Source: Clostridia bacterium
GTDB lineage: Bacteria > Bacillota > Clostridia > Christensenellales > DTU072
Assembly (NCBI GenBank): GCA_045535785.1
Contig: JAZSMH010000047.1
Location: forward strand, 8,250-72,249
Direction of reading: 5' to 3'
Length of the DNA: 64,000 nt
Shown: positions 5,497 through 50,721 of the stretch, in pieces
How positions within the stretch are numbered: position 1 is the stretch's first letter
How the letters are laid out: each line of letters starts with the position of its first letter
Position numbers and translations under genes: made by a program
Notes under the pieces: generated by a model
What the model saw: only the letters and a program-made list of their open reading frames with translations
Database searches by the model: none
What the model was told of the DNA's origin: nothing

Positions 5497-5526
5497 AAAA
5501 AAAGCAGATGAAGACCTGCTTTTTTT
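5497..5526 (+). terminator. Intrinsic terminator
   Basis: AAAAAAGCAG-atgaagac-CTGCTTTTTT. Confidence 0.7.
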
Positions 5527-5700: not shown

Positions 5701-5831
5701 CCGCGTTACTATAGCAACACAACCTGCAAAATCGACATTTTCAAAAAAAGATATTGTAATTTGCGCGCGTGTGTGCTATAATACTTTTGCTAATTATTTA
5801 TTAATAAATATTTTTAGAGGTAGAAGCGGAT

Positions 5832-8800
5832 ATGATAAGAAGTTTTAAGGCGAAAGTGGCGATAACAATCCTTATGGCGCTACTTATAATTATGCTCGGA
5901 CTTACCGTTGTAGTGAGCGAGCAAGAAGGAAGCGCAATTTCTCTAAAAGGCGCAGACGATTCCCTTAATTATTACACCGCTGATTTTGATACCGAGTGGA
6001 CGACTTCTACTTATCACAACGCTCCCGATTTTACCCTAGATACTTTCCTTGGTAAGAACGTTATTTCTTACTTCTTAGATACCAATTACGACGAACAATA
6101 TTCTACCACCGCGTCCATTATTTCTAGTAAGACCGACGCATTCAAGGTAGACGGCGTACTACAATTTTATTACTACACAAGACAAGAAAAATCTTTACCC
6201 CACGTTATTTCCGCATACGGCAGTAGCAACGGTGAAGATTTTTATTTTATGGACGAAGCTATTTGCTTCGACAACGGTGCCGATAGCAAGACTTGGTCGC
6301 CTGCTTCTCTTGATATAAAGGCAGGTACCGAGTATCTTAAACTCGATTGGACGGTTTATTTTGGCAAGGTTGACGGTGTAGATAAGGAAGACGGTGCGCT
6401 CGTTTTTAATCTTGACGATATCACGGTTACTTGCGTAGAAGACACCGATTTTGCATATACCGAGTTTAATTTTGAACTTGTTAAGTCGGCGTATTACTAC
6501 GACGGTAGCGTTATCACGCCCGAGTATAACGTTAGCGCAGACACCCTGCACGATTTTTACACCACCTATCGTTTTGAACAAGGCGGTAGCGCGATAGAGC
6601 CCGTTCACGTAGGTAGTTACGACCTCGTAGTAGACCTTCATAACCAAGCAGGAAGACTTTGTGCAACCTTTACCGATACGGTAGAGATATTGCCTGAGAC
6701 CGTAACTTTAGATAGTTACGAAATTATCAATAACGGCACTTATGCCGTAATAACCAACGCTACCTTCGTCGATGCAAAGGGCAGAAAGGTTAGTATAGAA
6801 GAAGCGGACGTAAGAAGAGTTTACGACGGCACGCAAGAGGTGATTATCGAAGTAGGTAGCACCGATTTTACACCCTATCAAACTAATTTAGGCATTATAG
6901 CAACAGACGTCACCGCACCTTATGCTTTTTATCAAAATAGCGATTACGTTACGTGCGTATATGACGGTACGGTAAAAAGCGTCAGCGATAACTTAAAAGT
7001 TTTCTCTTCCTACGATTTTGATAACGACACCTACGTCGATTATAGCGCCGCTTTCGCTATCACCTATTTTGATAGCGAGGGTAACGAAACCGAGCCCAAA
7101 TACGTAGGCACTTATACCTACTCTATACCTTTTGGTAGAAGAGAGATAAAAGGCACGTTAGAGATAACTCCACGCCTAATTAACTACGGTGATTACGTTG
7201 GTAGTGCTAATCTTGACAAAAAATACGATGGCACGACTTTCTTATCTGTGGACGGAGTTATTAGCAATACTTTACCGACCGACAGTATCGTTTTATCCGA
7301 TATCCTTGACGGAGATATCGTCAATATAAGTTACGAAAAAGCAACTTATGTCAAAGACGTAGGACTTACCTATCTCGCTCTCGATGGGATAACCCTAAGC
7401 GGTGATAGCGCAAGTAATTACGCAATAAGCGAAGACTTCTACGTTAACGCAACTGCAAGGATTACCGCTACCACTCTTATTTTGAATTCTCTCAACACGA
7501 GCGACGGTGTAATCAGCGTAGAGGATAAAGAATACGATGGTAACGATTCCGCTAATCTAGTAGGACCTTCTTCCGCACTTGATATGCTAGGCGCAGGCAA
7601 CACGGTGGTAACGGTATCCGACCTTACCGCTACCTTCGACGGTGTAGACAGCGGATTACGCGGAGTTAAGCTAGAAGTTACCAACAGAGCGTTGTTTGAT
7701 AGATTCTTGCCCGAGGTTATTATAAATACCGAATTGAGCGCCAACGTAACCAAGCGCAATCTTCAAGCAGAAGTGAGTTTAGTGAGCGATACGGAAAAAG
7801 AGTACGACGGCACCACTAATGCAAAGCCTATCATTAGCACCCTTAGTTTAATTAACGTAGAAGATTACGGCGACGGCTTTATCGATATCGTTAATTTAGG
7901 AACGTATTCAGTTAAGTACGAATCAGCTTTATACAATAACGCCAACGCAGGCGACAAGAAGATAACCGTTACCGGTATTAGCATGTTAAGTAACGATTAT
8001 AAGCAAAATTCCGTCTTAAACAACTACTATATTGATAACGTCGTATTCGACGGAGTTATCAAAGCGAAACAAATATCCATTCTCACCGAGTACGTCCGTA
8101 TATACGAAGGCGAGGCGTTGCCTAACTTAAGGACCACCGCTAGCGAAATGGGTATCACCGCGATGACTATCCACGCTAATATTTTGGACGCGGAGAATAA
8201 TACTAACGCTATCTCTAACGTAAGAATTCCTTCAGGCGAATATTTTATAAGAGTAAGCTGTACTTCCAATAACTACACCCTAGGCGGAGCAGGCTATGCA
8301 ATAATTCCCCTTACCGTTACCGCTATTGACGAAAAGATATCTCAAGAGATCGTTATTGATAACGTCAATATGATTTCTAAAAAAATCACTATGCTTGTGG
8401 GTGGTGAATTCACCCTTAATGCAATAAGCTACACCAAATACGCAGGTACCGTTTACGAAACAGGCCTCATGCCCGAATTTAAGGCGAGCGGTAGCGTAGG
8501 TAGTGTAAGTAGCGACGGCACGATTTACGCCAACACCGTAGGCTCGTTCACGGTTACCGTTTCACAAAGTGGTAACGAGAATTATAACAAAGCAAAAGAT
8601 ATCATTTTGAGCGTTGATGTAAAACAAGATAAACTCAACGCCGAGTACGAATATACCGACAATCTCTACGTTGACGACGAATTACCCGACCTTAACGGAC
8701 ACGTTAATGTAAAAGTAGGCGCATATCCCGTTATAGGTAGAATAGAAAAAGGCGACGGACGCGTCCTATTAGGCGAGAACAAATATACATATTATTTCGT

Positions 8801-10859
8801 AGCAGACACGTATTACGAAGAATATTTTTTCGAAGGCACTTTACCTACTAGATACGAGCTCGGTTACGACGGTAGGTACGTAGTTAGCGAAGATACCTCG
8901 TACGTACCAGGCAAGGTATACTATTCGTTAGAGGGTACTCCTGCTGACGTTGCCGAGGGCGAAAACATAATCAATTCTGCTATTTTTTATTACGAGCTCG
9001 TCGATGACGTATTCGTATTAACCAACGATATAGTAGTTGATAAAGACAAGACGTATTATACGGTTACAGGAAAACTTGACGAAACGAGAACAATAGTAGG
9101 TATCTTGTACGAAAAGGTAGGGGAAGACTACGTAATAACTTCCGATAGTGAAATGCTCGCAGGTAAGACCTATTATTACCAAACCAAGAGCGTTTATGGT
9201 AGGACGCCTTTTACTGTAATTCTATTAGCCAATAAGCGCGCCCTTAACGTAACGCTAGACGGTAGCTATAGTATCGCATACGGCGAGAACTTCGACTTTA
9301 TTAACGCGCTATCAAGTGCAGAAATAGACGGACAACCGATTAGTTACGACGATATCGTTAATAAGCTCTTTGGTGGCGGCTTTGTGCTCAATCTAGTGAA
9401 TACCGAAGGTGCCGTTGCCGTCAACGTAAACGAACTATTGCCTAACGTCTACGCTATTGACGTAGCTATGGGTGTAGAAGATAGCTACTACGTTGATTTT
9501 GACGACGAGAGCCTCGTTTACGACGTAATTCTTAACGGTAACGTGACGTTAACCGTCCAAAGAAGCGTGCTCAATATAGGAATAGAGAATTTTGAAAAAT
9601 ACTACTATCAAGATTTACCTACCAAGGAAGAACTACTTGCTTTGTTAAAAATCAGCGGTAGTCATAGAGAAGAAGATATAGACACGATTCTCGCTAGCGT
9701 AGTGGTTACCCTTACTATTGATAAATATTCCTCTCCCGGTCAATATTCAGTCCTTCTCGACGGCAATACTACCCTCGATAATTACGAGCTCACCTTCGTT
9801 GAAGGATACGTTAGCGTGCTACCCGTTCCCATAACCGTCTATGCATCAACCAACGGCCACGAATACGGCAGAAGAGTAAGCGCAGTTAACTTGAATATCC
9901 TATTCGATAACGCCAATTACTACTCAAGAGAAGATATGATAATTTTACAAGATATCATTTCGGATAACGTAATCTTGACGGTAGACGTAACCAATGATTC
10001 ACCCGTAGGCGACTACTATATCGAGTTTAATTACACCGCCGACAATAATTTTTATGAGTTCAAATATATCGATTCTTACTACGTAGTAAGGACTTCAACC
10101 TTTACCGATATGTTGTTTAATGACAAACACGTTCTCTATGACGGTAATAGGCATACTATGGAGATAGAATACGACGTAAATCAATGGCCGAATATCAAGG
10201 TAGAATATAACTACACCTATTTCGTTGAACCGGGTGAATATACCTTCGTTGCAACGGTTTCACAAGCTAACTACACCACAGCAGTGCTAGAAGCAACCCT
10301 CTACATAGGCGTACTCACTATCCAAAGCAGTAACCTTACGAATAACTTCGTTCAAATGACCATCATTGACGAAACCTGCCTAACGGGTATCAATAGCGCG
10401 TACGAGCTCACTTTGATAAAAGCGGAAGAGCTAACTAGCGCCCAAGCGGACGTTATCAATGAAAAAATGTCCGAATACAACGTGTTTGGCGTATATAACG
10501 TATTGATTAGTCACGGTGTAGAAAGCGTTATTATGGGATATACGGGATACGAGCTTAAATTATCCCCGGCAGACTTTAAGAATAGCGAAAGAGTAAAACT
10601 CTTTGGTTATAAAGACGGACAATATCAAGAACTAGAATATAACTACGAAGACGGCATGATCATCGTCACCGTTGATAGTCTAGAAGGTATCACCATCGTA
10701 GAAGAGATAATCAAAGAGGTGGATATGACTAGCGCGTGGATATTCGTAGTGATTATAGTTATCGTAATGCTACTCGTGCTAGGAATAATATCAAAGCACT
10801 TCAAAAAACATAAGAAGTTCAAAGCCAAGAGTCGCAAGCGCCACCATAGATGGGCATAA
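5832..10859 (+). CDS. Large membrane-anchored surface protein with YDG-like and MBG-like repeat domains
   Basis: N-terminal signal/TM, repeated K(E/K)YDG motifs, MBG-like segments, C-terminal TM followed by a basic tail (KHFKKHKKFKAK). Confidence 0.8.
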   Translation: MIRSFKAKVAITILMALLIIMLGLTVVVSEQEGSAISLKGADDSLNYYTADFDTEWTTSTYHNAPDFTLDTFLGKNVISYFLDTNYDEQYSTTASIISSKTDAFKVDGVLQFYYYTRQEKSLPHVISAYGSSNGEDFYFMDEAICFDNGADSKTWSPASLDIKAGTEYLKLDWTVYFGKVDGVDKEDGALVFNLDDITVTCVEDTDFAYTEFNFELVKSAYYYDGSVITPEYNVSADTLHDFYTTYRFEQGGSAIEPVHVGSYDLVVDLHNQAGRLCATFTDTVEILPETVTLDSYEIINNGTYAVITNATFVDAKGRKVSIEEADVRRVYDGTQEVIIEVGSTDFTPYQTNLGIIATDVTAPYAFYQNSDYVTCVYDGTVKSVSDNLKVFSSYDFDNDTYVDYSAAFAITYFDSEGNETEPKYVGTYTYSIPFGRREIKGTLEITPRLINYGDYVGSANLDKKYDGTTFLSVDGVISNTLPTDSIVLSDILDGDIVNISYEKATYVKDVGLTYLALDGITLSGDSASNYAISEDFYVNATARITATTLILNSLNTSDGVISVEDKEYDGNDSANLVGPSSALDMLGAGNTVVTVSDLTATFDGVDSGLRGVKLEVTNRALFDRFLPEVIINTELSANVTKRNLQAEVSLVSDTEKEYDGTTNAKPIISTLSLINVEDYGDGFIDIVNLGTYSVKYESALYNNANAGDKKITVTGISMLSNDYKQNSVLNNYYIDNVVFDGVIKAKQISILTEYVRIYEGEALPNLRTTASEMGITAMTIHANILDAENNTNAISNVRIPSGEYFIRVSCTSNNYTLGGAGYAIIPLTVTAIDEKISQEIVIDNVNMISKKITMLVGGEFTLNAISYTKYAGTVYETGLMPEFKASGSVGSVSSDGTIYANTVGSFTVTVSQSGNENYNKAKDIILSVDVKQDKLNAEYEYTDNLYVDDELPDLNGHVNVKVGAYPVIGRIEKGDGRVLLGENKYTYYFVADTYYEEYFFEGTLPTRYELGYDGRYVVSEDTSYVPGKVYYSLEGTPADVAEGENIINSAIFYYELVDDVFVLTNDIVVDKDKTYYTVTGKLDETRTIVGILYEKVGEDYVITSDSEMLAGKTYYYQTKSVYGRTPFTVILLANKRALNVTLDGSYSIAYGENFDFINALSSAEIDGQPISYDDIVNKLFGGGFVLNLVNTEGAVAVNVNELLPNVYAIDVAMGVEDSYYVDFDDESLVYDVILNGNVTLTVQRSVLNIGIENFEKYYYQDLPTKEELLALLKISGSHREEDIDTILASVVVTLTIDKYSSPGQYSVLLDGNTTLDNYELTFVEGYVSVLPVPITVYASTNGHEYGRRVSAVNLNILFDNANYYSREDMIILQDIISDNVILTVDVTNDSPVGDYYIEFNYTADNNFYEFKYIDSYYVVRTSTFTDMLFNDKHVLYDGNRHTMEIEYDVNQWPNIKVEYNYTYFVEPGEYTFVATVSQANYTTAVLEATLYIGVLTIQSSNLTNNFVQMTIIDETCLTGINSAYELTLIKAEELTSAQADVINEKMSEYNVFGVYNVLISHGVESVIMGYTGYELKLSPADFKNSERVKLFGYKDGQYQELEYNYEDGMIIVTVDSLEGITIVEEIIKEVDMTSAWIFVVIIVIVMLLVLGIISKHFKKHKKFKAKSRKRHHRWA

Positions 10860-10898
10860 ATTAGTTAAGAAAAAAACAATATAAAGGAAGAGAGAAAC

Positions 10899-12464
10899 AT
10901 GAACAAAATTAACGCTCTATTGCACAAACTGTTTGGCACCACCCCTAACGATGGTGACATTCAGCCCAAAGAAGCCCTTGCTTTTAGCGTAGCGGGATTT
11001 GGTCAAAACCTTATCTGTACGGTAATAGGTTCTTACATAACCATATTCATGACGGACGCTATTGGTTTCAAAGCACTACCTGTTGCGCTACTTATGCTCT
11101 TTACGAGATTGTTCGACGCCGCTAACGATCCCATTATGGGAAGTATCGTTGACTTCACTCGTACCAAGTGGGGAAAATGTCGCCCTTACCTAAAGTGGAT
11201 GGCTATACCCGTTGCGGTAATGACGATACTCTGTTTCTTGCCTGTATATGGTAACGATACGGCAAGCTTCGTTGGTATCAGTGTAGTTTACGTACTATGG
11301 AGCGTTGTTTATACCATCGTAGACGTACCTTATTGGGGACTTTCTACCGCTATGACTAACGACACCTACAAGCGCGGTAACTTCCTTACTATTGCTCGTC
11401 TTATCTGTATGGCGGGTGCAGGTATAGTAACCATCGTTCTTCCCCAAATCACCAGTGCTATCACCAATTCGGTAAATGCAGATTTTGGTGGCAACACCGC
11501 ACTTGCAGCACCCGTTATCGGTGAAAAACTTAAGTGGACGTACTTTATCGCAGCAGCAGTTTGCTCGGTAGTAGCAATTCCTCTATTCTACGTAGGATTT
11601 AAGGGTACCAAAGAAAGAGTAGAACAAAACGAAAAAGTTGCTTCTCTCAAGCACAACCTAAAATTATTAATTAAGAACAAGCCCCTTATGCTTATCGTTC
11701 TTTCGGGTATACTAGGCGCCGCAAGAATGGGCTTTACCTACACCGGTGGTCTTTACTTTGCAAAATACGTTCTTGCTGACGTTACTTTCTTAGGCGCACA
11801 AGGCGAAGGTATCTACACGTTCATGACGTTAGCAATTCTTCCCGGTGGACTTATTGCTTCCGTACTAGTTCCTTTCTTTACGAAGAAAATTGGTAAGAAG
11901 AACACCTATATTTGGTCGCATATCCTTGGATTTATCGGTCTAGGCGTAGCGTTTATCGTAGGTCTTATCAACAAATCAAGTGGCTATACCGACACCGCTA
12001 CTATGGTAGTATTCTTTATCGGTATCGTTATCGCCGGTATACCTAGCGGATTTACCAACATTCTTACCTACGCAATGATCGGTGACACCGTAGAATATCT
12101 AGAACTTAAGACGGGCGAAAGAGCAGAAGGTATCTGCTTCGCTATGCAAACCTTCATTTCCAAAGTTGGTATGGCAGTAGGCGCGTTCATCGGCGTACTT
12201 TCTTACAATATCGCTAACGTAGAAGCTAACAACGCAGCAGCACTCGACCAAGCGGGCAAAGACACCATGTGGTGGATGCTAGTTGGTTTAGGCGCAATCA
12301 GTATGCTCGCTACCATCATTCCTTTGTTCTTCTATAAGTTCAACGAAAAACAACAACAAGAAGCTATCGCTATCATCAAAGAACGCAAACTTCAAGCAAA
12401 ACTTGCAGAAGAAGGCGAAGTAGAAAGTGAAGTAGAAGAAGGCAAAAACATAGTAGAAGAATAA
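10899..12464 (+). CDS. GPH-family (MelB/GusB-like) MFS sugar:cation symporter
   Basis: DAANDPIMGSIVDFTRTKWGKCRPY motif, ~12 TM, YAMIGDTVEYLELKTGERAEG. Confidence 0.9.
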   Translation: MNKINALLHKLFGTTPNDGDIQPKEALAFSVAGFGQNLICTVIGSYITIFMTDAIGFKALPVALLMLFTRLFDAANDPIMGSIVDFTRTKWGKCRPYLKWMAIPVAVMTILCFLPVYGNDTASFVGISVVYVLWSVVYTIVDVPYWGLSTAMTNDTYKRGNFLTIARLICMAGAGIVTIVLPQITSAITNSVNADFGGNTALAAPVIGEKLKWTYFIAAAVCSVVAIPLFYVGFKGTKERVEQNEKVASLKHNLKLLIKNKPLMLIVLSGILGAARMGFTYTGGLYFAKYVLADVTFLGAQGEGIYTFMTLAILPGGLIASVLVPFFTKKIGKKNTYIWSHILGFIGLGVAFIVGLINKSSGYTDTATMVVFFIGIVIAGIPSGFTNILTYAMIGDTVEYLELKTGERAEGICFAMQTFISKVGMAVGAFIGVLSYNIANVEANNAAALDQAGKDTMWWMLVGLGAISMLATIIPLFFYKFNEKQQQEAIAIIKERKLQAKLAEEGEVESEVEEGKNIVEE

Positions 12465-12491
12465 CAAAAAAACAACCTTAAGAGGTGATTT

Positions 12492-12992
12492 ATGATAATA
12501 TCTTTACCTAAGAGCGTAACCCGAAAAGCGGTGGAAGTTCTCGTACCGCTTGACGAACCGCTTTGCAAACTTTCTCGTATCACAGGCGGTGTACTCGCCT
12601 ACAACTGTAATGGCAAAATCGTCGGTCAAATTTTTAAAGATACCAAGAAGTCGGTACGAGTAAGCGTTGCCGACGGCGGTACGTTGATAGTAACTCGCAC
12701 CGATAACGGTGTAGATATTAAGGACGTAACTTTCGACGAGAAAGAAAATAGGGGAATTAACAAGGTTATTAAGAAGCGTTCTTTTAACGCGGAAGAGTTC
12801 ATTACCTACGGTGACGTATACAAGTCGCAGTACCAACTTTTCTTGCGTAAAAAAGGCGAAGTAAAACCCATTTTAGCGTTCAACGTAGTTCAACACCCGC
12901 TCGACGACGACGTAATTAACGTAAAAGTCAACGACGGCATGAACGTACTATGGGTAATTTTGTTAACTTCCGCAATAGAAATTTTGCGTTAA
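12492..12992 (+). CDS. Hypothetical protein (possibly LURP-one/tubby-C-like)
   Basis: 166-aa ORF with host codon usage and a GAGGTG RBS; fold guess is weak. Confidence 0.55.
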   Translation: MIISLPKSVTRKAVEVLVPLDEPLCKLSRITGGVLAYNCNGKIVGQIFKDTKKSVRVSVADGGTLIVTRTDNGVDIKDVTFDEKENRGINKVIKKRSFNAEEFITYGDVYKSQYQLFLRKKGEVKPILAFNVVQHPLDDDVINVKVNDGMNVLWVILLTSAIEILR

Positions 12993-13017
12993 AATAATCA
13001 CTTTATAATAAAAATGT

Positions 13018-13046
13018 ACGAGCGCGCACGCGTGCGCTCGTTTTTT
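13018..13046 (+). terminator. Intrinsic terminator
   Basis: ACGAGCGC-gcacgcgt-GCGCTCGT then T-run. Confidence 0.8.
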
Positions 13047-13239
13047 ATTGAAAAAAGCAGTAAATAATTGCAATTTGCTTTTCATAAGAGTATAATTATT
13101 TGCATACAAAACTAGGTCAAAATATAACTTTTAGACTTGTTCTAAAAATAAAACTGACAGAGCAGTTGGCGTTCGCTACGCTCGGCTGCACTGTTTGCAA
13201 AGCAAACAATATAACTCAATATAATGCTTGGAGTTAATT

Positions 13240-14037
13240 ATGTACGAAATATACGATAGTCACGCACACATATATCCCGAAGCAATAGCATCGAAAGCGG
13301 CAATAACCATAGGTAAATTCTACGATACCACCATGTCGGCGGACGGGTCGGTTAGTAAACTTCTAGAATCAGGCAAAAGAGCAGGTATATCCCGCTACGT
13401 AGTCCATTCCGTAGCCACCACACCCCACCAAGTAGGGTCTATCAATAGATTTATCGAGAAAGAATGTGCTTTGCACCCCGAGTTTATCGGTTTTATGACT
13501 TTGCACCAAGACATGACGGAAGAAGAAATTGCCCTTGAAGTGGATAATTGCATAAATAAAGGCTTCTTCGGTATAAAAATGCACCCTGATTTTCAAAAAT
13601 TCGCTATAAACAGTGACGAGGCAAGAAAAATTTATCGTGTAGTAGACGGCAGACTTCCCATCCTTTTCCATACGGGCGACTATAGATACAACTATTCCCA
13701 CCCTTCGTTTTTGGCGGAAATCGCTAAAGAATTCCCGAACGGCAAATTCATCGGCGCGCACTTTGGCGGTTGGTCGTGTTGGCAAGACTGCAAGGATATA
13801 TATAAAGGTCTCGACAACGTTTGGTTCGACACCTCTTCATCACTAGGCTTTCTCAATAACGACGAATTAATAACCAAACTTCTGCTAGAAATGGGCACCG
13901 AAAGATTTTTCTTCGGTTGCGACTACCCCATGTGGGACCATAAGGAAGAAGTAGAGCACTTCCTAAAACTCGATCTCACCGAAAAACAACGCGAAGATAT
14001 ATTCAGCAAGAACTTGCGTAATTTCTTAAATATATAA
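13240..14037 (+). CDS. Amidohydrolase family (TIM-barrel) protein
   Basis: DSHAH, GIKMHP, ILFHTG, GAHFGG, FDTSS, FGCDYP motifs; ATG after GGAG. Confidence 0.88.
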   Translation: MYEIYDSHAHIYPEAIASKAAITIGKFYDTTMSADGSVSKLLESGKRAGISRYVVHSVATTPHQVGSINRFIEKECALHPEFIGFMTLHQDMTEEEIALEVDNCINKGFFGIKMHPDFQKFAINSDEARKIYRVVDGRLPILFHTGDYRYNYSHPSFLAEIAKEFPNGKFIGAHFGGWSCWQDCKDIYKGLDNVWFDTSSSLGFLNNDELITKLLLEMGTERFFFGCDYPMWDHKEEVEHFLKLDLTEKQREDIFSKNLRNFLNI

Positions 14038-14078
14038 AATAAAGTTCATTTTTGGGGTAATATTGATTAAAATATAGA

Positions 14079-14836: not shown

Positions 14837-14946
14837 TTGGCACGCGTTATTTATGCCAATCCACAACTTCGCACTTGTGTAGTAAGGCGTGTCATTGCAT
14901 GAAGGTTGGTTGTTTTAGTGTTATATACAAAATAATTATCTTCTCT

Positions 14947-15084
14947 ATATATTTTTATCCATAATTTCGTACATAGTACGATACATCATTGTTGACTTTT
15001 AGTCAACTACATCATTTCGACCATAGGTCGATACATCATTTGCCGTAAGGCATACATCATGTTGCCATAAGCAACGCATCATTC
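14947..15084 (-). repeat. ATGATG(T/C) motif + variable hairpin array
   Basis: Five (A)CATCAT(T) motifs on + separated by perfect short hairpins GTTGAC/GTCAAC, CGACC/GGTCG, GCC/GGC, GTTGC/GCAAC, plus a terminal CGTAC/GTACG hairpin. Confidence 0.85.
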
Positions 15085-15118
15085 AAAAAACGTGAGTATT
15101 AATTATTATTACATTGAT

Positions 15119-15343
15119 TTATAAAAATCTCACGTTTTTTGTTATCACGTCCGAGTAAGAGAAGGACACTAGCGAGCCCGTTTTTAGGCGTACGGTGAAT
15201 ATATTAGGATAGGCGTTTTCCAATATTCCTTCTATCATTTCTATTTTATTCCGTCCGCGGTTTACCTTTAATTTTACGTTTAAGCCGATAGCATTTTTTA
15301 TTTTGTCTTTTGTTCCCGATACCGAGTATACTATTTCACGCAT
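15119..15343 (-). CDS. veg: Veg family protein
   Basis: KVNRGRNKI...GILENAYPNIFTV...SFSYSDVIT. Confidence 0.9.
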   Translation of the reverse strand: MREIVYSVSGTKDKIKNAIGLNVKLKVNRGRNKIEMIEGILENAYPNIFTVRLKTGSLVSFSYSDVITKNVRFL

Positions 15344-17119: not shown

Positions 17120-17197
<78 letters not shown>

Positions 17198-17205
17198 CGA
17201 GTTGT

Positions 17206-17282
17206 GGCGGCGTAGCTTAGTTGGTTAGAGCGGCCGGTTCATACCCGGCAGGTCGTTGGTTCGAATCTGACCGCCGCTACCA
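17206..17282 (+). tRNA. tRNA-Met (CAT, elongator-type)
   Basis: Cloverleaf GGCGGCG/CGCCGCT, anticodon loop TT-CAT-AC, CCA end; resembles the Bacillus elongator Met rather than Ile2. Confidence 0.9.
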
Positions 17283-17318
17283 CGAAATCCATAGATAATG
17301 CGACAATGTAAGTACCAA

Positions 17319-17393
17319 GGCCCCTTGGTCAAGCGGTTAAGACATCGCCCTTTCACGGCGGTAACATGGGTTCGATTCCCGTAGGGGTCACCA
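17319..17393 (+). tRNA. tRNA-Glu (TTC)
   Basis: Cloverleaf, CT-TTC-AC anticodon loop, CCA end. Confidence 0.95.
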
Positions 17394-17399
17394 AACAAT

Positions 17400-17475
17400 G
17401 GGAGCATAGCTCAGCTGGGAGAGCGCTTGCCTTACAAGCAAGATGTCATAGGTTCGAGTCCTATTGTTCCCACCA
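17400..17475 (+). tRNA. tRNA-Val (TAC), prophage integration site
   Basis: Cloverleaf, CT-TAC-AA anticodon loop, CCA end; 3' half duplicated at 25330. Confidence 0.95.
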
Positions 17476-17477
17476 AA
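17431..17477 (+). repeat. attL: 47-bp direct repeat
   Basis: CTTACAAGCAAGATGTCATAGGTTCGAGTCCTATTGTTCCCACCAAA, identical to 25330-25376. Confidence 0.95.
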
Positions 17478-17510
17478 ATAAGACGGTTTTTGACCGTCTT
17501 ATTTACTTTT
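17476..17510. terminator. Bidirectional terminator between the tRNA operon and the integrase
   Basis: AAATAAGACGG-tttttga-CCGTCTTATTT. Confidence 0.8.
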
Positions 17511-17526
17511 ATAGCATTTTTTAGCA

Positions 17527-18360
17527 TTATAACGAGTTGTTAATTAAGTCTATCTCGTGTAAAATAGTGTCACTTTTTGAGTATGATATTTTTTCTTTAT
17601 TCAGATAGTACGTCTTCGTAGTTCTCGTTGTAGTATGACCGAGCCACGCTTGGATCGTAGTTTCACGTACACCCAATTCATAGCACATTAATGAGAATGT
17701 ACAACGTAGGGAGCGCACGTTGAATTGTGGCATACCTATTCTTTTTAGGTGACGCTTCAAACACAAGAAGACGTAGTTTGGCTTGTATGAAGTAAAGTAT
17801 TTTTTGTAGTCACCGACGTCACGTAATATTTTTTCTAACTTATCAAACAACGGTAGCACTCTATCGGAGCCTTCTGTCTTGGTTCCGTGAATAAAAACAA
17901 GCTTCTTTTTGAAGTCCACTTCAAAACTGCCGGGAGCAATTAACTCGTTCCTACGTGCACCGGTGTAAAGGTACGTCAGATATAGCGTCTTGTACGGCTT
18001 GCCTTCCAGACTTTTTATAAAGCGGTTGCGCTGACGTTCGTTCATTGGTTCGGTATTCTCAAAGTGATAAACCTTAAACTTTACTGCCAAGATAGGGTTA
18101 AAGTCTATATAACGATTTCGGTATGCGTACTCGAATATATCCGTAACGTACTTTCTAACTTTATCCTGCATATTCGGTGTAGACGAAAGAGAATTGATAA
18201 AGCGCTGCAACTCGATTCCACGTATATCTTCGATATCACGCTCACCGAATTCTTTAAGAACGTGCTTAAGACAATACCGAATCACTTCCAACGTCGCATG
18301 CGACACAAATGGTTTCTTATAAATCTCAAACCAATCATTTACCCAATCACTAAATTTCAT
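17527..18360 (-). CDS. Tyrosine recombinase / phage integrase
   Basis: SAM-like core-binding N-terminus; LYTGARRNE (R), GTKT (K), RSLRCT (HxxR variant), LGH, TKTYY (Y); next to attL. Confidence 0.92.
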   Translation of the reverse strand: MKFSDWVNDWFEIYKKPFVSHATLEVIRYCLKHVLKEFGERDIEDIRGIELQRFINSLSSTPNMQDKVRKYVTDIFEYAYRNRYIDFNPILAVKFKVYHFENTEPMNERQRNRFIKSLEGKPYKTLYLTYLYTGARRNELIAPGSFEVDFKKKLVFIHGTKTEGSDRVLPLFDKLEKILRDVGDYKKYFTSYKPNYVFLCLKRHLKRIGMPQFNVRSLRCTFSLMCYELGVRETTIQAWLGHTTTRTTKTYYLNKEKISYSKSDTILHEIDLINNSL

Positions 18361-19510
18361 TATTCTTTTCGCTTATTATTCTAATTATCTTTTGACGTGA
18401 TATGTACTTTATATAGGGACGTTCGTCTAAGTCCTTAAGGACTTCGTCAAGGTTAGATAGTATATCTTCAGGCGTTTCGATAGAACGCAGCTCGCTAACT
18501 ACAGCTTGATAATACTCGTCTATTTTTTCCGAAGGAATATCGTCATCGAACTTAAACTTATTTAGAATTCCATACCCTTGAATCATTTTACGTCGGTAAA
18601 GTGCGTAGTATAAATTTTTGAAAACGTCGTAAGGGAATAACGGTTGACCTTTTTTGAACGTTCCTTTTAACACGTACTTAAAAACTTGGTGATATTTACC
18701 ACGCGAATCGTCGCACGTTACCGAATAACCTAATTTGAGATTGTCAAATTCTTCTTTAGTTAAGCGGATACCGTTATAGAGCAAATACCAAACCTTCTGC
18801 AAGAAAATTTCTATGTCGGTAAAATACCGTACCAACTTTCCATTGTTAAAAGAATAATCGTTGATATGCTTTCTCTTTTTGTCTAAACCTTTACGGAATA
18901 AAAATAAACAGTGCAAATGGGGGTGATACTCGAATTCATTGCCAACTTGTTTAGTAGTTATTTCTACCGCGCGAATAGCACCAACAAAGCCAAAATTCTT
19001 AAAGTCAATGCCGTTACACTTGCGCTTGCCTTCCATATACTGAATTATGTATGGGAATTTAACATACATTGTGTTGAGAACGTTAAGAAGGGATATACCG
19101 TTGCAATTCGGTACGGTAAATACGGTATGATAAATATCATACGTCTTACGTAACTCGTCTAAATAAGTAGTGTATTTTACTTCGCGACGTTGTGAGAGAA
19201 GATTTTGACAATTAACACAAAATTTGTCTTTACAAAGTTGAATTCTCTTAATATCTTTAACGGACTGAATACGATAATAGTCGATATCCCAATACTTATA
19301 GCAGGTTCTAACGTTGCTTCCTTGGTGATAAAGACGTTCGTTATTTATAGACTCTCTTGATAAAGTTTGATAATAATCGCATATCTCGTCGTTGCGAGAC
19401 ACTCTTTTTGCGCTTTTGCGTATCTTATCAGTCGAAACAATTAAGTCGGAATAGTTCATAATTTGTGTAGAGTTATTTCTATTTAGTTCAAGGCTCGCCT
19501 TTAGGCTCAC
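18350..19510 (-). CDS. rep: Rolling-circle replication initiator (HUH, Rep_1/pC194-like)
   Basis: HTVFTVPN (motif I), YHPHLHCLF (HUH motif II), VFKYVLKG (motif III Tyr); N-terminal CxxC pairs; GTG start after AGAAGG. Confidence 0.9.
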   Translation of the reverse strand: MSLKASLELNRNNSTQIMNYSDLIVSTDKIRKSAKRVSRNDEICDYYQTLSRESINNERLYHQGSNVRTCYKYWDIDYYRIQSVKDIKRIQLCKDKFCVNCQNLLSQRREVKYTTYLDELRKTYDIYHTVFTVPNCNGISLLNVLNTMYVKFPYIIQYMEGKRKCNGIDFKNFGFVGAIRAVEITTKQVGNEFEYHPHLHCLFLFRKGLDKKRKHINDYSFNNGKLVRYFTDIEIFLQKVWYLLYNGIRLTKEEFDNLKLGYSVTCDDSRGKYHQVFKYVLKGTFKKGQPLFPYDVFKNLYYALYRRKMIQGYGILNKFKFDDDIPSEKIDEYYQAVVSELRSIETPEDILSNLDEVLKDLDERPYIKYISRQKIIRIISEKNNEI

Positions 19511-19767
19511 GATTTAGCCTTCTTAAGGGGTGCTGAAGCACGTATTAGACGTTAACGGTTGAGTCCACTATTCGCTGCCGTGAAAGACCATATAACGTTG
19601 CAGGGGTACATCTATGACACTCACGCGTTGGCCCATTATTAGTGGTACGTGGCTAAAGCCATTAAGCTACGTTCCATTTTTAGGGACGTCGGCATTGGCC
19701 TACTGGCGTTCCCACTCATAGCCGACAGGGCTAATAAAGGGAAATTATAAAGGTGAGTTCCGTTTAG

Positions 19768-19825
19768 CTTGCTGGGGGAGGGGGACTGCCCCCACGTTCC
19801 CCCAGCAAGGTTATCAACATAAAAT
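19768..19825 (-). other. Putative double-strand origin (dso)
   Basis: Minus strand TTTTATGTTGATAA (19824-19811) resembles the pC194 nick site TCTTATCTTG^ATA; immediately followed by the 12-bp stem CTTGCTGGGGGA/TCCCCCAGCAAG with an inner GGGGG/CCCCC hairpin. Confidence 0.7.
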
Positions 19826-19837
19826 AATTATCTTACG

Positions 19838-20884
19838 TTACCTAGATTTGCGGTAACGGTTTGAATTGCTTGTTTTAATTATCTTACGTGAATAAAGTTT
19901 GCGGTTAGTTTCGTTGTCGTCGATAATCAAATCTTCAACACCAACAGCTTTAACGATCTCGTCTTTAGACGGATAAAGTTTACGCAGGTGTCTATCGTTA
20001 TACTTACCGATAGCACACGGCAACAAGTGGAATCTATAACCGTCGTCACCGTCCGTACGTACAACTACTTCACCTTCGGCAACACGTTCAGTTTCTTTGC
20101 AGCTAAAAGCACGCATACCGAAGAGCTTGAAGAATTTACCGTAAGAATGGTGAATTTTATGAATAGCAGGGGATAGACGTTTGATATCTTTATTCATGTT
20201 ATCAGCGTCCTGAGAATCTAATATAAAATAACCGTCAATATAGTGACCTATACGCTCAAAAAAGTTAGCCAAAAGCGATAATTCTTCGCTACGTCCACGT
20301 TCTAAATAAGAATCTACAGGGAAGACACTCTGCGCTTCAGAGACGTTGAAAACCATACCATATAATGAAGGCTTTTGACAAACGACCATATCATAATCAT
20401 AAGGCATAGACTTTTGACGATCGTCTAATATAGTTACGTTAGACGTAAGACAAGGGATATATTCAGGGTGCTTTTGATAGAAACTATACGTCTTTTGGCA
20501 CTCGTGATAGTGATAAATAAATGATTGTTGATCGTCATCACAAAATTGATTACGATTAATCAAGTCCATAATTCGCTTATACTTGCGCCATTTACGTTTA
20601 ACAACGCTAGTTATAGTCTTATATTGCTTACGTGCAAGGCAAACGGCTATAGTAGTTGAAGTATCGGTTTTACCGACACGCGGACCACCTTCCCAAACTT
20701 GAATACGGCTACCGTTCTTCAAGTCCTTGCGTAAATGCGTTAAACACAAAGAATATAATATCGTTACAGCTAGCGCAGGGATAAATAAGAAAAGCCACCA
20801 AGCAGAGTAGGTGAGCACAAACAAGAAACTTAAGATAGCCAAGAATAAAGATAGATTACGAATTGTTTTATACTTTTTTAGCAT
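19838..20884 (-). CDS. Zot/pI-like morphogenesis ATPase with N-terminal TM segment
   Basis: Walker A GGPRVGKT, Walker B-like FNVSEAQ, GHYIDGYFILDSQ...KDIKRL matching the Zot RH..xxxxTQ...D..IR region; hydrophobic N-terminus. Confidence 0.8.
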   Translation of the reverse strand: MLKKYKTIRNLSLFLAILSFLFVLTYSAWWLFLFIPALAVTILYSLCLTHLRKDLKNGSRIQVWEGGPRVGKTDTSTTIAVCLARKQYKTITSVVKRKWRKYKRIMDLINRNQFCDDDQQSFIYHYHECQKTYSFYQKHPEYIPCLTSNVTILDDRQKSMPYDYDMVVCQKPSLYGMVFNVSEAQSVFPVDSYLERGRSEELSLLANFFERIGHYIDGYFILDSQDADNMNKDIKRLSPAIHKIHHSYGKFFKLFGMRAFSCKETERVAEGEVVVRTDGDDGYRFHLLPCAIGKYNDRHLRKLYPSKDEIVKAVGVEDLIIDDNETNRKLYSRKIIKTSNSNRYRKSR

Positions 20885-21071
20885 TTTTAGTTTTTATACT
20901 CCTTCTAATTATTTTTACAAGCAAACCAAACGGCATCATAGCAACAAAGGCTACGAAAAGTACCGTAAGAAGAACTAATATAATTTCTAAACTAGGACCA
21001 AGCAATGGATCCAAAAAGAGCTGCTCTCCCATTACTACATGGAAGAAATCTAACAACGGTTGCAGTATCAT
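20868..21071 (-). CDS. Small single-TM protein (minor coat candidate, pVII/pIX-like)
   Basis: 67 aa, one TM, basic C-terminus; overlaps both neighbours. Confidence 0.7.
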   Translation of the reverse strand: MILQPLLDFFHVVMGEQLFLDPLLGPSLEIILVLLTVLFVAFVAMMPFGLLVKIIRRSIKTKNAKKV

Positions 21072-21220
21072 TTACTTAAATACCCCCATATTTTGATTAT
21101 TAATTTATATAGACCAAAAGTCATTAAGAAGATAAGACCAAGCATTATAACTTGACTAGGCAGATCTCCAGCATATTCAGGAATTAACGTATCTAAAATT
21201 AACTTTATATTACTTACCAT
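21068..21220 (-). CDS. 50-aa single-TM protein absent from the ORF track (minor coat candidate)
   Basis: MVSNIKLILDTLIPEYAGDLPSQVIMLGLIFLMTFGLYKLIIKIWGYLSK; starts 2 nt after the upstream stop and ends in an ATGA overlap with the next gene. Confidence 0.75.
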   Translation of the reverse strand: MVSNIKLILDTLIPEYAGDLPSQVIMLGLIFLMTFGLYKLIIKIWGYLSK

Positions 21221-21222
21221 AA

Positions 21223-21621
21223 TTAACGCGCTATAATAGAGCCTCCACCAAAACCACCACCACCATAATCAGGTGAAGTTTCATAGCCAAACCACTCTAA
21301 GAAATCACCGATAAAATTAAAGAATTTTACAAGATAAGAAGAAACTCCTTCAATAAATTCAATTAATAAATCAAGTACATCTTTAAATACAGGATAAAGG
21401 CCACTTTGGAACAAATCTATCAAGATATCGAGAACGTCGCGACCAAATTCCAAACCTAATTCGGCTATATCACCTAGAATAAGAAGGATATCGTTAATCA
21501 TACCTAAAAGCGTAGGTAAAAGGTTAAAAGTCAAATCTGCCATCGTTTGAAATGGCAGAATAATTGCTTGTATTAACGTTACCCAACGTTCTAAATCTAA
21601 AAAACTTGATACGAATTCCAT
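21223..21621 (-). CDS. Hydrophobic protein (pVI-like position)
   Basis: Amphipathic/hydrophobic 132 aa directly after the pIII-like gene; start set at ATG 21621, one base after the upstream TAG. Confidence 0.65.
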   Translation of the reverse strand: MEFVSSFLDLERWVTLIQAIILPFQTMADLTFNLLPTLLGMINDILLILGDIAELGLEFGRDVLDILIDLFQSGLYPVFKDVLDLLIEFIEGVSSYLVKFFNFIGDFLEWFGYETSPDYGGGGFGGGSIIAR

Positions 21622-21622
21622 A

Positions 21623-23137
21623 CTAACGCTTAACCATTTTGATAATAAATACAACTATAGCAATAGCTACAGCAAGAGCCAATATAGAACCTAACGTAAT
21701 GCCAAAAACTTCAATTCCACTTAACGTATCGAATGCATTAACAAATATATCGGTAGTACCACTTATAGCACCACCTAGGGCACCAAGAGAACTACCGTCA
21801 ACGGTTTCAGCAACGGCAAGACCTTCAGCATATCCTACGGAATAGCCTGCTCCACGTCCTGCTTCATAACCAACGTCATAACTAACTAATACACCTTCGT
21901 CGTATCCAGAGTCGTAACCTTCGTCTTCACCCATTGAAAAACCTATATTATAGCCGTCAGTCCAACTTTCACTAGTGATATTAACTCTAGAATCGGCATA
22001 TTTAACACCTTCGTCGTATCCAGAGTCGTAACCTTCGTCGTATCCAGAGTCGTAACCTTCGTCGTATCCAGAGTCGTAACCTTCGTCGTATCCAGAGTCG
22101 TAACCTTCGTCTTTCCCTATCTGATAATAAGTATCAGAGCCTTCATCCCAACCTTCGTCATAGCCTTCTTGCTTACCAACGTCATAACCAGCAGTATAAC
22201 CACTATTATAATCACCATAAACGTTAACTGAATCTACGGTACCAAAACCGATATAATCACTTAAGTACGTTCTTAAATCATTAAGTACTTCGGTTGTAGC
22301 ACTTGCTCCGAAGCCATTAAAAGGAGCGGGCGCTATTGCTTGATAACGTTCAGGCAATAAATCGTAATCTACACAATAACCTTCAATACTCATCTGACTT
22401 AAATAATTCTTACCGTCACCAACGTGACGATACATAGTGGGATATTTACCCCAAGAACCTACAAGGCCAAGAGTTAATTCGGTGAAACTGCCTTCAGGTG
22501 CGATAGAATAAAAATTTTGTGAAAGTCTCCAATCAGAAGTGGTAGAGGCATTGGTAGAAACTCTACTATCTAGCAACCTAATATTACCTGCAGAATATGT
22601 AGTAGACGTTAGATTATAAATATTAGATATATCAATAAAAGCCAATTTGAATTCATTGGTAGTGGTATCCAACCGATATTGAGCGCGTAAACCAACGTTA
22701 TAACAGTAATATTGATAAGAACCGCCAGAAGAACCTATAATGGTACTGTTAGTAGGTATAGCAGAATCGACTAATTTACCATAAACATAGCCAAACTCTT
22801 GAAAATAGGTAATGATGGTAGACGTTTCTTGATACGGTGTTATAAAATAATCTAAATAACGGTCTAAACGTTGAGTTTCGATATTTAATACATTAGCCTT
22901 GTTAAAATACAAGCCACAATTAGAAGAAGTAGATTGCGTTAAAGGCGCCACCGTACTACTAAAATTACTGCTATCTGCAGGAACCCAACTTTCTTCAGCC
23001 AGCGCCACCTTATCTACGTTCTTATATTCTACGTTAGTAGATATTCCGCTAAATGCAATAAAAGCAATAATGATAACTAGTGCCATTATTGCTACGTAAG
23101 TAAGTATATTTTTTTTATTCTCTTTCAAAAATTCCAT
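21623..23137 (-). CDS. pIII-like adsorption protein candidate
   Basis: N-terminal signal/TM, globular Ser/Thr/Tyr-rich region, Gly-rich G-Y-D-x repeat linker, C-terminal TM anchor. Confidence 0.68.
   Translation of the reverse strand: MEFLKENKKNILTYVAIMALVIIIAFIAFSGISTNVEYKNVDKVALAEESWVPADSSNFSSTVAPLTQSTSSNCGLYFNKANVLNIETQRLDRYLDYFITPYQETSTIITYFQEFGYVYGKLVDSAIPTNSTIIGSSGGSYQYYCYNVGLRAQYRLDTTTNEFKLAFIDISNIYNLTSTTYSAGNIRLLDSRVSTNASTTSDWRLSQNFYSIAPEGSFTELTLGLVGSWGKYPTMYRHVGDGKNYLSQMSIEGYCVDYDLLPERYQAIAPAPFNGFGASATTEVLNDLRTYLSDYIGFGTVDSVNVYGDYNSGYTAGYDVGKQEGYDEGWDEGSDTYYQIGKDEGYDSGYDEGYDSGYDEGYDSGYDEGYDSGYDEGVKYADSRVNITSESWTDGYNIGFSMGEDEGYDSGYDEGVLVSYDVGYEAGRGAGYSVGYAEGLAVAETVDGSSLGALGGAISGTTDIFVNAFDTLSGIEVFGITLGSILALAVAIAIVVFIIKMVKR
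22007..22111. repeat. Perfect 24-bp tandem repeat (4.4 copies) encoding EGYDSGYD
   Basis: ACCTTCGTCGTATCCAGAGTCGTA x4 + 9 bp; a further 1.4 copies at 21893-21925. Confidence 0.95.
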
Positions 23138-23259
23138 TTAAGTACCCCAGGCAGTTTAACGACGTGCCTAGGTCGTATGATAGATTATGAAGACTTGACA
23201 ATAAGTCATTGGTAGTGGGTAGTATTGTTAGCCTGTTCCCACCAACGCAGGCAAATAAT

Positions 23260-23454
23260 TTATCCACGGAATAAAGATACAAGTTTTAACAAGATAGCAA
23301 ACCCTAATGGAACCGCTATTAAGAAGAGGATCACGTTTCCTACAGGCGTTATACCGTCGTTATAAAGCAGTGAAAAAAGATCTTCCAAATTAGTCTTATT
23401 AGAACTTATAAAAGTTGTCGCCGCCGTAAAAAAATTATTAATAATTTCAGCCAT
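23260..23454 (-). CDS. Coat-like protein 2
   Basis: 64 aa, amphipathic N-half, one TM, basic C-end; shares S.(F/L)(W/Y).D..T.(I/V)G with the upstream ORF. Confidence 0.7.
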   Translation of the reverse strand: MAEIINNFFTAATTFISSNKTNLEDLFSLLYNDGITPVGNVILFLIAVPLGFAILLKLVSLFRG

Positions 23455-23479
23455 AGCAAATGAATTTAGAATCTAGCAT

Positions 23480-23692
23480 TTAGCCCCTTGCTTTGAAGAG
23501 TTTGCGTAACATTGCAAAAACGGTGAAAGCAAGACCAATACCACCGACTACAAGTCCGACAGTACCGATATCGGTTAGCTTGCTGCCTTCAGAGTCCCAA
23601 AAGATACTTACGCCAGCGCTTAACACGTTACCGAAACCGCTTACCGCAGAAGCTCCTGCTCCGAATAAAGTTTCAACAATTTGAGTTAGCAC
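23480..23692 (-). CDS. Major coat protein candidate (pVIII-like)
   Basis: 70 aa, Gly/Ala-rich amphipathic helix, TM, MLRKLFKARG basic tail; GTG start after AAGGGG. Confidence 0.75.
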   Translation of the reverse strand: MLTQIVETLFGAGASAVSGFGNVLSAGVSIFWDSEGSKLTDIGTVGLVVGGIGLAFTVFAMLRKLFKARG

Positions 23693-23940
23693 GATTCTAC
23701 CCCTTTAAGTAAATTCTCTATTGTCGCAGTGTCGACTCCACGATCTAACAATAGATTTGACAATGATTCTTCAATTTGCATACGGCGTTTTTTAGACATA
23801 AGAGCAAAGATAGAAATTTTATAAATCATTTCGTCGTTATAACAAAATCTCAATATACCGCCTTCTTGATAACAAAATAACTTGTCTTGCTCGTTAATGT
23901 TTGCGGAAAATAATAGATTGGTTTTTGACGTCTTCAACAT
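23686..23940 (-). CDS. Hypothetical phage protein
   Basis: 84 aa, ATG after AAGGTG, overlaps the coat gene start. Confidence 0.6.
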   Translation of the reverse strand: MLKTSKTNLLFSANINEQDKLFCYQEGGILRFCYNDEMIYKISIFALMSKKRRMQIEESLSNLLLDRGVDTATIENLLKGVESC

Positions 23941-23954
23941 AACGGCACACCTTA

Positions 23955-24146
23955 CTATTTATCACTTATAACGCCTGCTTGACGTAGAAGGATATTAAGC
24001 GCCTTCTTATCAGCGGGTTTAGGGGATAGATAAAAACTCTCGCCACCAATATCCAAACGGAAAGACGTATACGGGTGCTTGCTACCGTCATCGGCTACGT
24101 AAGTAGGCCTAGTTACTGCTACAGTTACTTTCTTTTCTTGTTCCAT
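23955..24146 (-). CDS. Small beta-rich protein, possible pV-like ssDNA-binding protein
   Basis: 63 aa, AAAGGAG RBS, first gene of the structural operon, aromatic/basic beta strands; function is a positional inference. Confidence 0.55.
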   Translation of the reverse strand: MEQEKKVTVAVTRPTYVADDGSKHPYTSFRLDIGGESFYLSPKPADKKALNILLRQAGVISDK

Positions 24147-24187
24147 AAAAAATTCTCCTTTTTAATTAATTATCGTATTTATTTATA

Positions 24188-24252
24188 TACCCAATTTGGG
24201 TACAACTAAATATTACTACCAATTTTGGGTAGTGTCAACCCATTTTGGGTAG
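24188..24252. promoter_or_regulatory. Prophage switch: leftward sigma-A promoter overlapped by three operator palindromes
   Basis: Minus strand TTGACA(24238-24233)-N17-TAATAT(24215-24210); TACCCAA-T-TTGGGTA, TACCAATTTTGGGTA, AACCCATTTTGGGTA. Confidence 0.75.
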
Positions 24253-24271
24253 TCTATTATAAAATTATCTT

Positions 24272-24553: not shown

Positions 24554-24576
24554 TAATAAATAATAGAGGAGTAATT

Positions 24577-25284: not shown

Positions 25285-25329
25285 TACAATAACAACTGCG
25301 TTGTTAAAAATAGAAGCAATAGGATAAAT

Positions 25330-50681: not shown

Positions 50682-50721
50682 TGTTGGTCGTTCAAGTGTT
50701 ATCTACTATATAAAGAAATAA

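Follow-up and report, generated by a model that had tools for sequence, protein, structure and literature searches.

Word-and-hairpin arrays of a Clostridia genome as candidate relatives of the Gut-1 motif and partners of Avd-like proteins

Between the genes of an uncultured Clostridia bacterium lie short arrays in which a repeated word alternates with different hairpins, raising the question of what kind of element they are and with what, if anything, they act. We examined this question in a window of 64,000 nt, by which we mean the whole stretch of DNA that was analysed, and in the genome from which it comes (G000; 2.16 Mb, 71 contigs, 39% G+C), whose SipL/LysM and veg genes show the host to be a spore-former. 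An earlier note on the window had claimed five arrays with a shared grammar, consisting of a directional 7–9-nt word, variable hairpins, and a conserved terminus. All five are present and follow this grammar, with array ends refined as listed here together with adjoining features (hp, hairpin).

5527–5602, plus strand: array 1, with four ATGATGC words, short degenerate spacers, and terminus ATTAAGGATA
5641–5694, plus strand: array 2, a short array reading TGATGTA-hp-AATGATGTA-hp-AATTATGGATA
5641–5726, plus strand: an 86-nt block made up of array 2, then TTT, then a reversed terminus remnant, TATCCGCGTTAC
14903–14955, minus strand: an AT-rich module (AAAATATATAGAGAAGATAATTATTTTGTATATAAC) that adjoins the terminus of the focal array and follows many termini
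14956–15082, minus strand: the focal array, with five ATGATGY words, five different perfect hairpins, and terminus AATTATGGATA
15085–15140, minus strand: a hairpin resembling a two-way terminator (A6-CGTGAG..CTCACG-T6), belonging to a small veg-like gene on the minus strand
39025–39182, minus strand: a chimeric array of two ATGAATT units, then four GTGAAGT units, with terminus GTTGAGGATA
50833–50990, plus strand: a chimeric array, the near-identical inverted copy of the array at 39 kb

Along the minus strand, the focal array reads as a T-run followed by GAATGATGC-hp-ATGATGT-hp-AATGATGTA-hp-AATGATGTA-hp-AATGATGTA-hp-AATTATGGATA, with stems GTTGC, TGCC, TCGACC, GTTGAC, and TCGTAC, and its terminus appears on the plus strand as TATCC at 14956–14960. 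When folded as DNA, either strand gives five separate hairpins joined by unpaired 9-nt linkers, with z scores of −6.0 and −5.9 for the two strands that were equalled by none of 200 shuffles. The array begins 2 nt past the T-run of the veg-like gene's terminator; the orthologous gene in the sister-strain sequence L350 was called PF06257. The AT-rich module on its other side is promoter-like on the plus strand (TATACA-18-TATATT) and recurs past the termini of array families A, B, and D. Array 1 likewise starts directly past a two-way terminator (A7-GCAG..CTGC-T7), that of an upstream 359-aa gene, and the 86-nt block lies directly 3′ of a GC-module hairpin (GCGGT-CGCC-ACCGC). The 160-nt copies at 39 kb and at 50.8 kb, which are near-identical from the first ATGAATT to GGATAA, are real arrays as previously described, but each is a chimera of two ATGAATT and four GTGAAGT units, and the earlier observation that copies keep a stem while its loop changes from tcc to tat was correct. 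The 12-kb segment between these inverted copies was considered as a transposon and rejected, being an ordinary MoxR/DUF58/BatA/VWA operon. GC-rich modules (CCAACTGCGCTGCGGTCGCCACCGC, CCACAGCGGCTCGCTG, GCAAGGAGTGTCCTTGCATGCAAG) at 5603–5640, 38816–39024, 50601–50832, and 50991–51246 constitute a second mosaic repeat system that is interleaved with the arrays and reshuffled between strains; these modules often form a hairpin 'head' from which an array starts.

A motif-chain scan of the host genome called 82 arrays rich in hairpins, of which 78 lie outside long ORFs, in support of the earlier description of a non-coding, polar, dispersed element. At least six word families occur (ATGATGY, GTGAAGT, RTGAAAT, GYKATAT, GCGATAT, and ATGAATT), with ~30 arrays for ATGATGY, 18 for GTGAAGT, 15 for RTGAAAT, and 14 for GYKATAT/GCGATAT taken together, in addition to the ATGAATT arrays. 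Each array is polar and usually comprises four copies of a 7–9-nt word and a word-like terminus with hairpins between them, and 50 of the 82 have exactly four words plus the terminus. Two AATGATGTA words spaced 11–19 nt apart occur 48 times in this genome and not once in 40 relatives, and the reversed-pattern control gave no hits. The consensus of 61 termini is AARTTRWGGATAAA, and the sequence beyond the terminus is conserved as an A-tract only, not as a −10 box; we also considered the terminus as a promoter, a case that is weak without conservation of a −10 box. CRISPRs are recognised by 23–50-nt repeats and unique spacers, whereas the repeats here are 7–9 nt long and the 8–21-nt palindromic spacers recur between arrays; MITEs have terminal inverted repeats and a target-site duplication, whereas these arrays have asymmetric ends, with a word at one and GGATA at the other. 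No target-site duplication was present at the two recent copies (39 and 50.8 kb) or at the 86-nt insertion. A near-identical 143-nt GCGATAT/GTGAAGT array is present in at least 10 copies and stands at many contig ends (C1, C2, C13, C34, C38, C41, C58, and C65), making arrays a main cause of assembly breaks in this metagenome-assembled genome.

The genomic surroundings of the arrays are stereotyped. Arrays start where a pre-existing hairpin has its 3′ foot, usually 6–9 nt beyond a terminator stem, and the strictly called terminators that precede arrays are two-way, with an upstream A-tract, in 11 of 11 cases compared to 42% of 973 other terminators (p = 7e-5). The upstream gene is co-directional for 45 of 67 arrays, and divergent promoter regions, which hold 3 of the 67, are avoided. 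Facing arrays are common and meet as GGATA-N2-3-TATCC or GGATA-N12-13-TATCC; otherwise the recurrent AT-rich module follows. A bias with respect to the replication strand, which the earlier note had proposed to check, was absent (31:29). We also considered GGATA-N3-TATCC as the core of a site-specific recombination system and rejected it, as no recombinase is associated with it. As a separate observation, small XRE/HTH_3 genes are overrepresented up to 400 nt from arrays in the host genome (7/31 compared to 124/1603 ORFs, p = 0.008), and three XRE genes start 8–19 nt past an array terminus, which then resembles their ribosome-binding site.

The earlier note had proposed that the element is selected on hairpin structure and had named missing stem covariation as an argument to the contrary; covariation proved to be strong. 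Spacers with stems of at least 5 bp account for 36–71%, compared to 3–9% in shuffles. The stems are different perfect 4–7-bp hairpins in which pairing rather than sequence is conserved, family A alone having 26 different 5-nt arms, and all four pair types occur. The Watson-Crick fraction of the stems was 0.83–0.92, compared to 0.34–0.52 when 3′ arms were shuffled among units, and RNAalifold analysis of 24 units from several genomes gave five pairs, each with double compensatory changes in 10–12 units and none with a one-sided (wobble) change. Among 655 stem pairs, 4 were G.T and 5 were A.C, with no excess of G.T. Identical stems carry loops of between 3 and 6 nt. Read on the word strand, 72% of the loops have T as their first base and 84% have a pyrimidine as their last, and the closing pair is C-G in 74% compared to 16% in the genome background. 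Of 123 distinct hairpins, 49 follow the pattern C-G(N)NA-G when read on the complementary strand and none when read on the word strand (genome background, 3.6%), and in six other genomes (G044–G049) 13 hairpins follow it on the complementary strand and 1 on the word strand; the ordinary one-way terminators of the host have no such loop bias. Mini-hairpins of the GCGAAGC type are extraordinarily stable in DNA, and this stability depends on the C-G closing pair (PMC13037366, PMC3201870). As far as sequence statistics can indicate, the loops and closing pairs probably point to DNA that is read on the strand opposite the RTGAWRT word. The scarcity of G.T pairs could also reflect young, recombination-generated stems instead of a function at the DNA level.

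The arrays had not been recognised as a named family, and a match to an already described one had been given as grounds for revising the proposal. Such a match exists for part of the family. The Rfam motif Gut-1 (RF01706) has the consensus CAaUGAAAU-hairpin-GUGAAAU-hairpin-GUGAAAu-hairpin-UGAAAU, an alternation of word and hairpin, and its covariance model has a gathering score of 50 bits. A GTGAAAT array of the host genome is a true match at 67.4 bits, and arrays linked to genes in the genomes G235 and G229 scored 56.1 and 53.7 bits. The GTGAAGT part of the 39-kb array (39047–39125) reached 35.8 bits (E 9.5e-6), with the array aligned in register, and the focal array reached 20.9 bits (E 0.085), both aligned along the whole model but below gathering; the segment at 5500–5730, containing arrays 1 and 2, had no Rfam match. 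Thus, the GTGAAAT sub-family is Gut-1 and the earlier statement is not supported; the window arrays stay below threshold. The C/D box (AUGAUGU) resembles the word in the Rfam output, a likeness that was set aside as noise. The window arrays have the architecture of Gut-1, with a repeated 7-nt word and at least three covarying hairpins, and Gut-1 similarly alternates (G/A)UGAAAU with variable covarying hairpins and CUUCG-type loops; they differ from it in their words (ATGATGY and ATGAATT/GTGAAGT) and in their sub-gathering scores. The best reading of these comparisons is that the window arrays are orphan, sub-threshold variants of Gut-1-type arrays. In the main text of Weinberg et al. 2010 (PMC2864571), Gut-1 appears as a likely ncRNA known from human-gut metagenome sequence only, and that main text does not contain the several word families per genome, the conserved terminus, the post-terminator position, the head-to-head pairs, the link to PF05635 described below, the DNA-type loop statistics, or the turnover between strains.

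Arrays with this grammar extend well beyond the host. A looser three-word pattern was found in 25 of 401 genomes of the order, with the host richest by far at 47 hits, and true arrays occur in at least four families of the order and also in other genera. Exact AATGATGTA patterns were run against genome, viral, and metagenome contigs and returned mostly tandem and coding repeats, and the scan of genome contigs yielded six true related genomes, all from uncultured gut or rumen Clostridia, whose arrays share the grammar and have a similar terminus but other stems. Over at least four families, the stems have turned over completely while ATGATGY as the word and ARTTRWGGA as the terminus have been conserved. 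Plasmid and phage records yielded no similar arrays.

The gene family that accompanies the arrays is PF05635. By raw counts that ignore kinship, 15 of the 16 genomes with ATGATGY arrays have it, compared to 1 of 11 congeners lacking the ATGATGY pattern, a comparison in which the other words were checked in a 400-kb sample of G019 only. G247 has 15 arrays and no PF05635 match. The host has four PF05635 genes, all outside the window, making the window copies orphans; the earlier claim that the partner lies outside the window is therefore supported for the likely partner gene. Immediately upstream of three of the four (on contigs C20, C4, and C46) lies a double word-and-hairpin array in inverted arrangement, and each of these arrays has a word of its own (GTGAAGT, ATGAAAT, and ATGTAAT among the three); in one case ATTAAGGATA closes the arm and leaves 7 nt to the ATG. 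An upstream double array was also found for 7 of 8 PF05635 genes located in other genomes and for those of G310 and G240. Gene-linked ATGATGY arrays occur in G048, G310, and G240; the host assembly holds no gene-linked copy of this word, the commonest in its genome. The orientation of the gene-proximal arm varies, with the word strand at C46 and in G310 and the complementary strand at C20, at C4, and in G048. A cross-genome screen for gene families recurrently beside arrays gave nothing beyond XRE and chance and, being run on the loci of orphan arrays, did not pick up PF05635.

PF05635 proteins resemble Avd (PMC10053308), which forms a pentameric, highly basic barrel (10.1101/344556), and the closest solved structure to the PF05635 protein, PDB 2RLD, has five chains. 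Avd and the 23S rRNA IVS proteins belong to the same small four-helix-bundle family (PMC10053308); Avd is a basic pentameric barrel that acts on structured nucleic acid, and IVS copies lie within hairpin-forming inserts (PMC10053308, 10.1101/344556). Unlike the Avd of diversity-generating retroelements, the PF05635 genes of the host stand alone, with word-and-hairpin arrays upstream and with neither a reverse transcriptase nor template or variable repeats in the genome. The upstream arrays suggest, from gene position and sequence, that an Avd-like protein may be the partner of the Gut-1 motif, which has had no assigned function since 2010. The agreement between a pentamer and four words plus a terminus is numerology.

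We found sister strains through their SipL and SecG proteins, with flanking genes ~97–99% identical, and every array locus that we compared varies between these strains. Units are gained or lost, blocks are exchanged, or an array is present in one strain and absent from another, and breakpoints fall within a loop, within an arm, or at the foot of a hairpin. Array 1 is kept with small changes in L350/L351, from which the 86-nt block is missing so that ..GCCACCGC runs directly into CAAAATCGAC. At the veg locus, L350, L355, and L360 retain the first unit alone, followed by 3 or 4 GTGAAGT units (a one-unit indel), compared to five A units and the AT-rich module in the window strain, which alone has that module; the far end is common to all strains. 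At the PRK locus, four ATGAATT units in L360 correspond to seven in L355 and to two fused to four GTGAAGT units in the window, and different cargo genes adjoin the array in each strain. Every array at the SecG locus (50.8 kb) starts after ..GAGTTTGCCT, with ATGATGT and GCGATAT together or pure ATGAATT in other strains and the chimera in the window. The arrays are thus among the fastest-changing parts of the genome between strains, which breaks assemblies and could make them useful as a strain marker. Beside an array, the interval that separates the PRK-like gene from the Exo_endo_phos gene forms a cassette hot spot (window 38816–40308; L355 17860–21229; L360 17841–18272), with no cargo in L360, a 234-aa ORF in the window, and HTH_3, a 113-aa ORF, and DUF6273 in L355; a purine riboswitch (RF00167, 54 bits) lies at 36870–36968, upstream of the PRK-like gene. 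The operon at 5832–14040, which encodes a 1675-aa YDG-domain protein, is 84–87% identical between strains compared to 97–99% for its flanking genes.

Several repeat systems invite comparison with these arrays. STAR elements of Staphylococcus are also intergenic short direct repeats with variable spacers that expand and contract between strains and superficially resemble CRISPRs, but they consist of a GC-rich 14-mer with ~40-nt non-hairpin spacers and are not known to have a terminus or partner gene (PMC3532100, PMC5294841); the STAR signature T[GAT]TGTTG[GT]GGCCC[CA] (PMC5294841) was absent from all array sequences that we read. In the mosaic elements of Neisseria (dRS3 + RS), short repeats similarly bracket interchangeable, strain-shuffled units beside variable cassettes, whereas dRS3 is a 20-bp inverted-repeat site of phage integration and the units are 50–150 bp long and are not hairpins (PMC1797815). 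REP and BIME sequences, to which the earlier note had likened the arrays, and REPINs are closer in being short extragenic palindromes with tens of dispersed copies, arranged as lineage-specific mosaic arrays near the 3′ ends of genes. REPs, as Nunvar in 2010 and Bertels & Rainey in 2011 reportedly described them, share one conserved imperfect palindrome, form inverted doublets, and have a cognate Y1 HUH gene. In the arrays described here, by contrast, the palindromes are all different and perfect, the linker is the conserved part, the units stand in direct, polar order, and an HUH partner gene is absent.

The window does contain one HUH-type gene. By a cluster of four tRNAs at 17120–17472 lies an integrated element (17431–25376) with a tyrosine integrase (17527–18360), a Rep_1 rolling-circle initiator (18350–19510), and an HTH_19/HTH_3 repressor-like gene (24272–24553). 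The window has 16 copies of TCTTGATA, a sequence akin to CTTGATA, the core of pC194-type nick sites, compared to 2.6 expected from shuffles, with no site at an array and several in or near the prophage (19355, 21418, 22827, and 23864). Four tyrosine recombinases are present in the host genome, as in relatives, and none adjoins an array.

The earlier proposal of a REP/BIME-like non-autonomous element, mobilised as single-stranded DNA by a Y1/HUH (RAYT-type) transposase, fits a dispersed, hairpin-based element that inserts at the 3′ foot of hairpins, has loops like those of single-stranded DNA mini-hairpins, and shares the window with Rep_1. The searches for an enzyme have largely refuted it, and we give it next to no credence: PF01797 (Y1 HUH) has no match in the host genome (96% complete) or in three of six other array-bearing genomes (G044, G046, and G048); the host has no reverse transcriptase and, by self-BLAST, no multicopy transposase, IS, or other multicopy protein family; no gene flanked by inverted REP-like copies was found; and the lagging-strand bias is absent. 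Rep_1 is unrelated to the presence of arrays, as among 34 genomes it occurs only in the host and in the array-less G012, and its prophage, although present in L350, is missing from the array-bearing L355 and L360, where SipL directly precedes GrpB. With no transposase found, the arrays might be selfish or neutral hairpin minisatellites that have no protein partner, are made and reshuffled only by replication slippage and template switching at hairpins, and are tolerated past terminators. A one-unit indel (3 compared to 4 units) and an expansion (four compared to seven) between strains, the chimeras, the breakpoints at hairpin feet, and the avoidance of promoter regions, as expected of harmless junk, all suit this idea, and template switching is known to create and keep perfect hairpins (PMC8794818, PMC5941160). 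We nevertheless think it improbable, since the conservation of ATGATGY and ARTTRWGGA across at least four families despite turnover of the stems, a strand-specific loop rule that mutation alone would not be expected to yield, and the tight adjacency of arrays to PF05635 genes all speak against it.

An RNA function, a somewhat stronger candidate but still an unlikely one, would make the arrays structured ncRNA genes. Transcription would follow the word strand or run antisense from the terminus side and stop at the shared two-way terminator, and the product would act as RNA, such as a sponge or a scaffold, with the same Avd-like protein as a possible partner. The classification of Gut-1 as a likely ncRNA in the main text of the 2010 study is one reason to entertain it, as are the strong covariation, the two-way character of all strictly called terminators before arrays, the promoter-like TATACA-18-TATATT directed into the focal array, and, on the complementary strand, GNRA-like loops and an RNA fold like beads on a string (z = −4.8). 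Other features are harder to reconcile with RNA: both strands lack the wobble excess, triloops of the C-GAA-G type, which mark stability of DNA and not of RNA, make up 41% of the loops, the A-tract past the terminus is conserved without a −10 box, the veg locus of the sister strains is too tight for an antisense promoter, and wholesale replacement between strains would be odd for a functional RNA gene. We regard it as very improbable that the arrays are double-stranded DNA platforms bound by another host protein, with DnaA occupying the terminus or XRE-type repressors the palindromes. The terminus reads TTATCC[AT][CTA]A on the complementary strand, that of GTGAAAT arrays is a perfect DnaA box (TTATCCACA), and 12 of the 62 genomic TGTGGATAW sites are array termini; most termini, however, deviate at box positions 7–8, and TTATCCACA is not enriched in the genome (29 compared to ~26 expected, estimated from base composition). 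The case for XRE repressors draws on the enrichment of their genes near arrays and on the three that begin just past a terminus, but loops of 3 to 6 nt on the same stems do not fit dimeric operators, and the enrichment may reflect shared residence in variable regions.

The explanation that we favour, with moderate confidence, is that the five arrays are orphan copies of a word-and-hairpin family, of which Gut-1 is the GTGAAAT version, and that this family is the cis partner of the PF05635 Avd-like proteins. A basic, pentameric Avd-like protein would bind the repeated words, and the very stable mini-hairpins would hold these words single-stranded or at fixed spacing, with recognition probably on the complementary DNA strand. 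Binding at the protein's own promoter would amount to autoregulation, and the protein may also occupy dozens of orphan sites past terminators; arrays bound there may insulate the ends of genes, titrate the protein, or do nothing for the cell. Spread and turnover may proceed by hairpin-stimulated slippage, template switching, or recombination, with no need for a dedicated transposase. A bolder extension of this explanation, which we offer as speculation and think unlikely in its full form, would have Gut-1-type arrays and PF05635 constitute a two-component system that has so far gone unrecognised: a pentameric Avd-like barrel would recognise some five copies of a programmable 7–9-nt word on single-stranded DNA between C-G(N)NA-G mini-hairpins, each paralogue would have one word, arrays would be written at the feet of terminators by transposase-independent copying, and gene ends would become hypervariable, protein-marked hot spots of cassette exchange.

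These results place Gut-1, an orphan, metagenome-only motif in Rfam since 2010, in a defined host genome, and make it one word-variant of a much larger grammar with at least six words in a single 2-Mb genome. Its candidate partner belongs to the same family as the Avd of diversity-generating retroelements, a protein that is essential yet little understood, and the lack of wobble pairs together with the one-strand DNA mini-hairpin loops calls into question the assumption that Gut-1 acts as RNA. If the pairing of proteins with words is true, it would amount to a simple, naturally programmable system of nucleic-acid recognition. As a minor observation, a PF05635 gene follows a tRNA both in the host (C29:98849–99136) and in G019 (C6:~86620–87000), matching the tRNA-adjacent context. 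Upstream of the tRNA-adjacent gene are not word-and-hairpin arrays but heptamer-type CTTCAC/TTTTCAC repeats in an inverted repeat, and these heptamer-preceded genes may be an older form of the same partnership.
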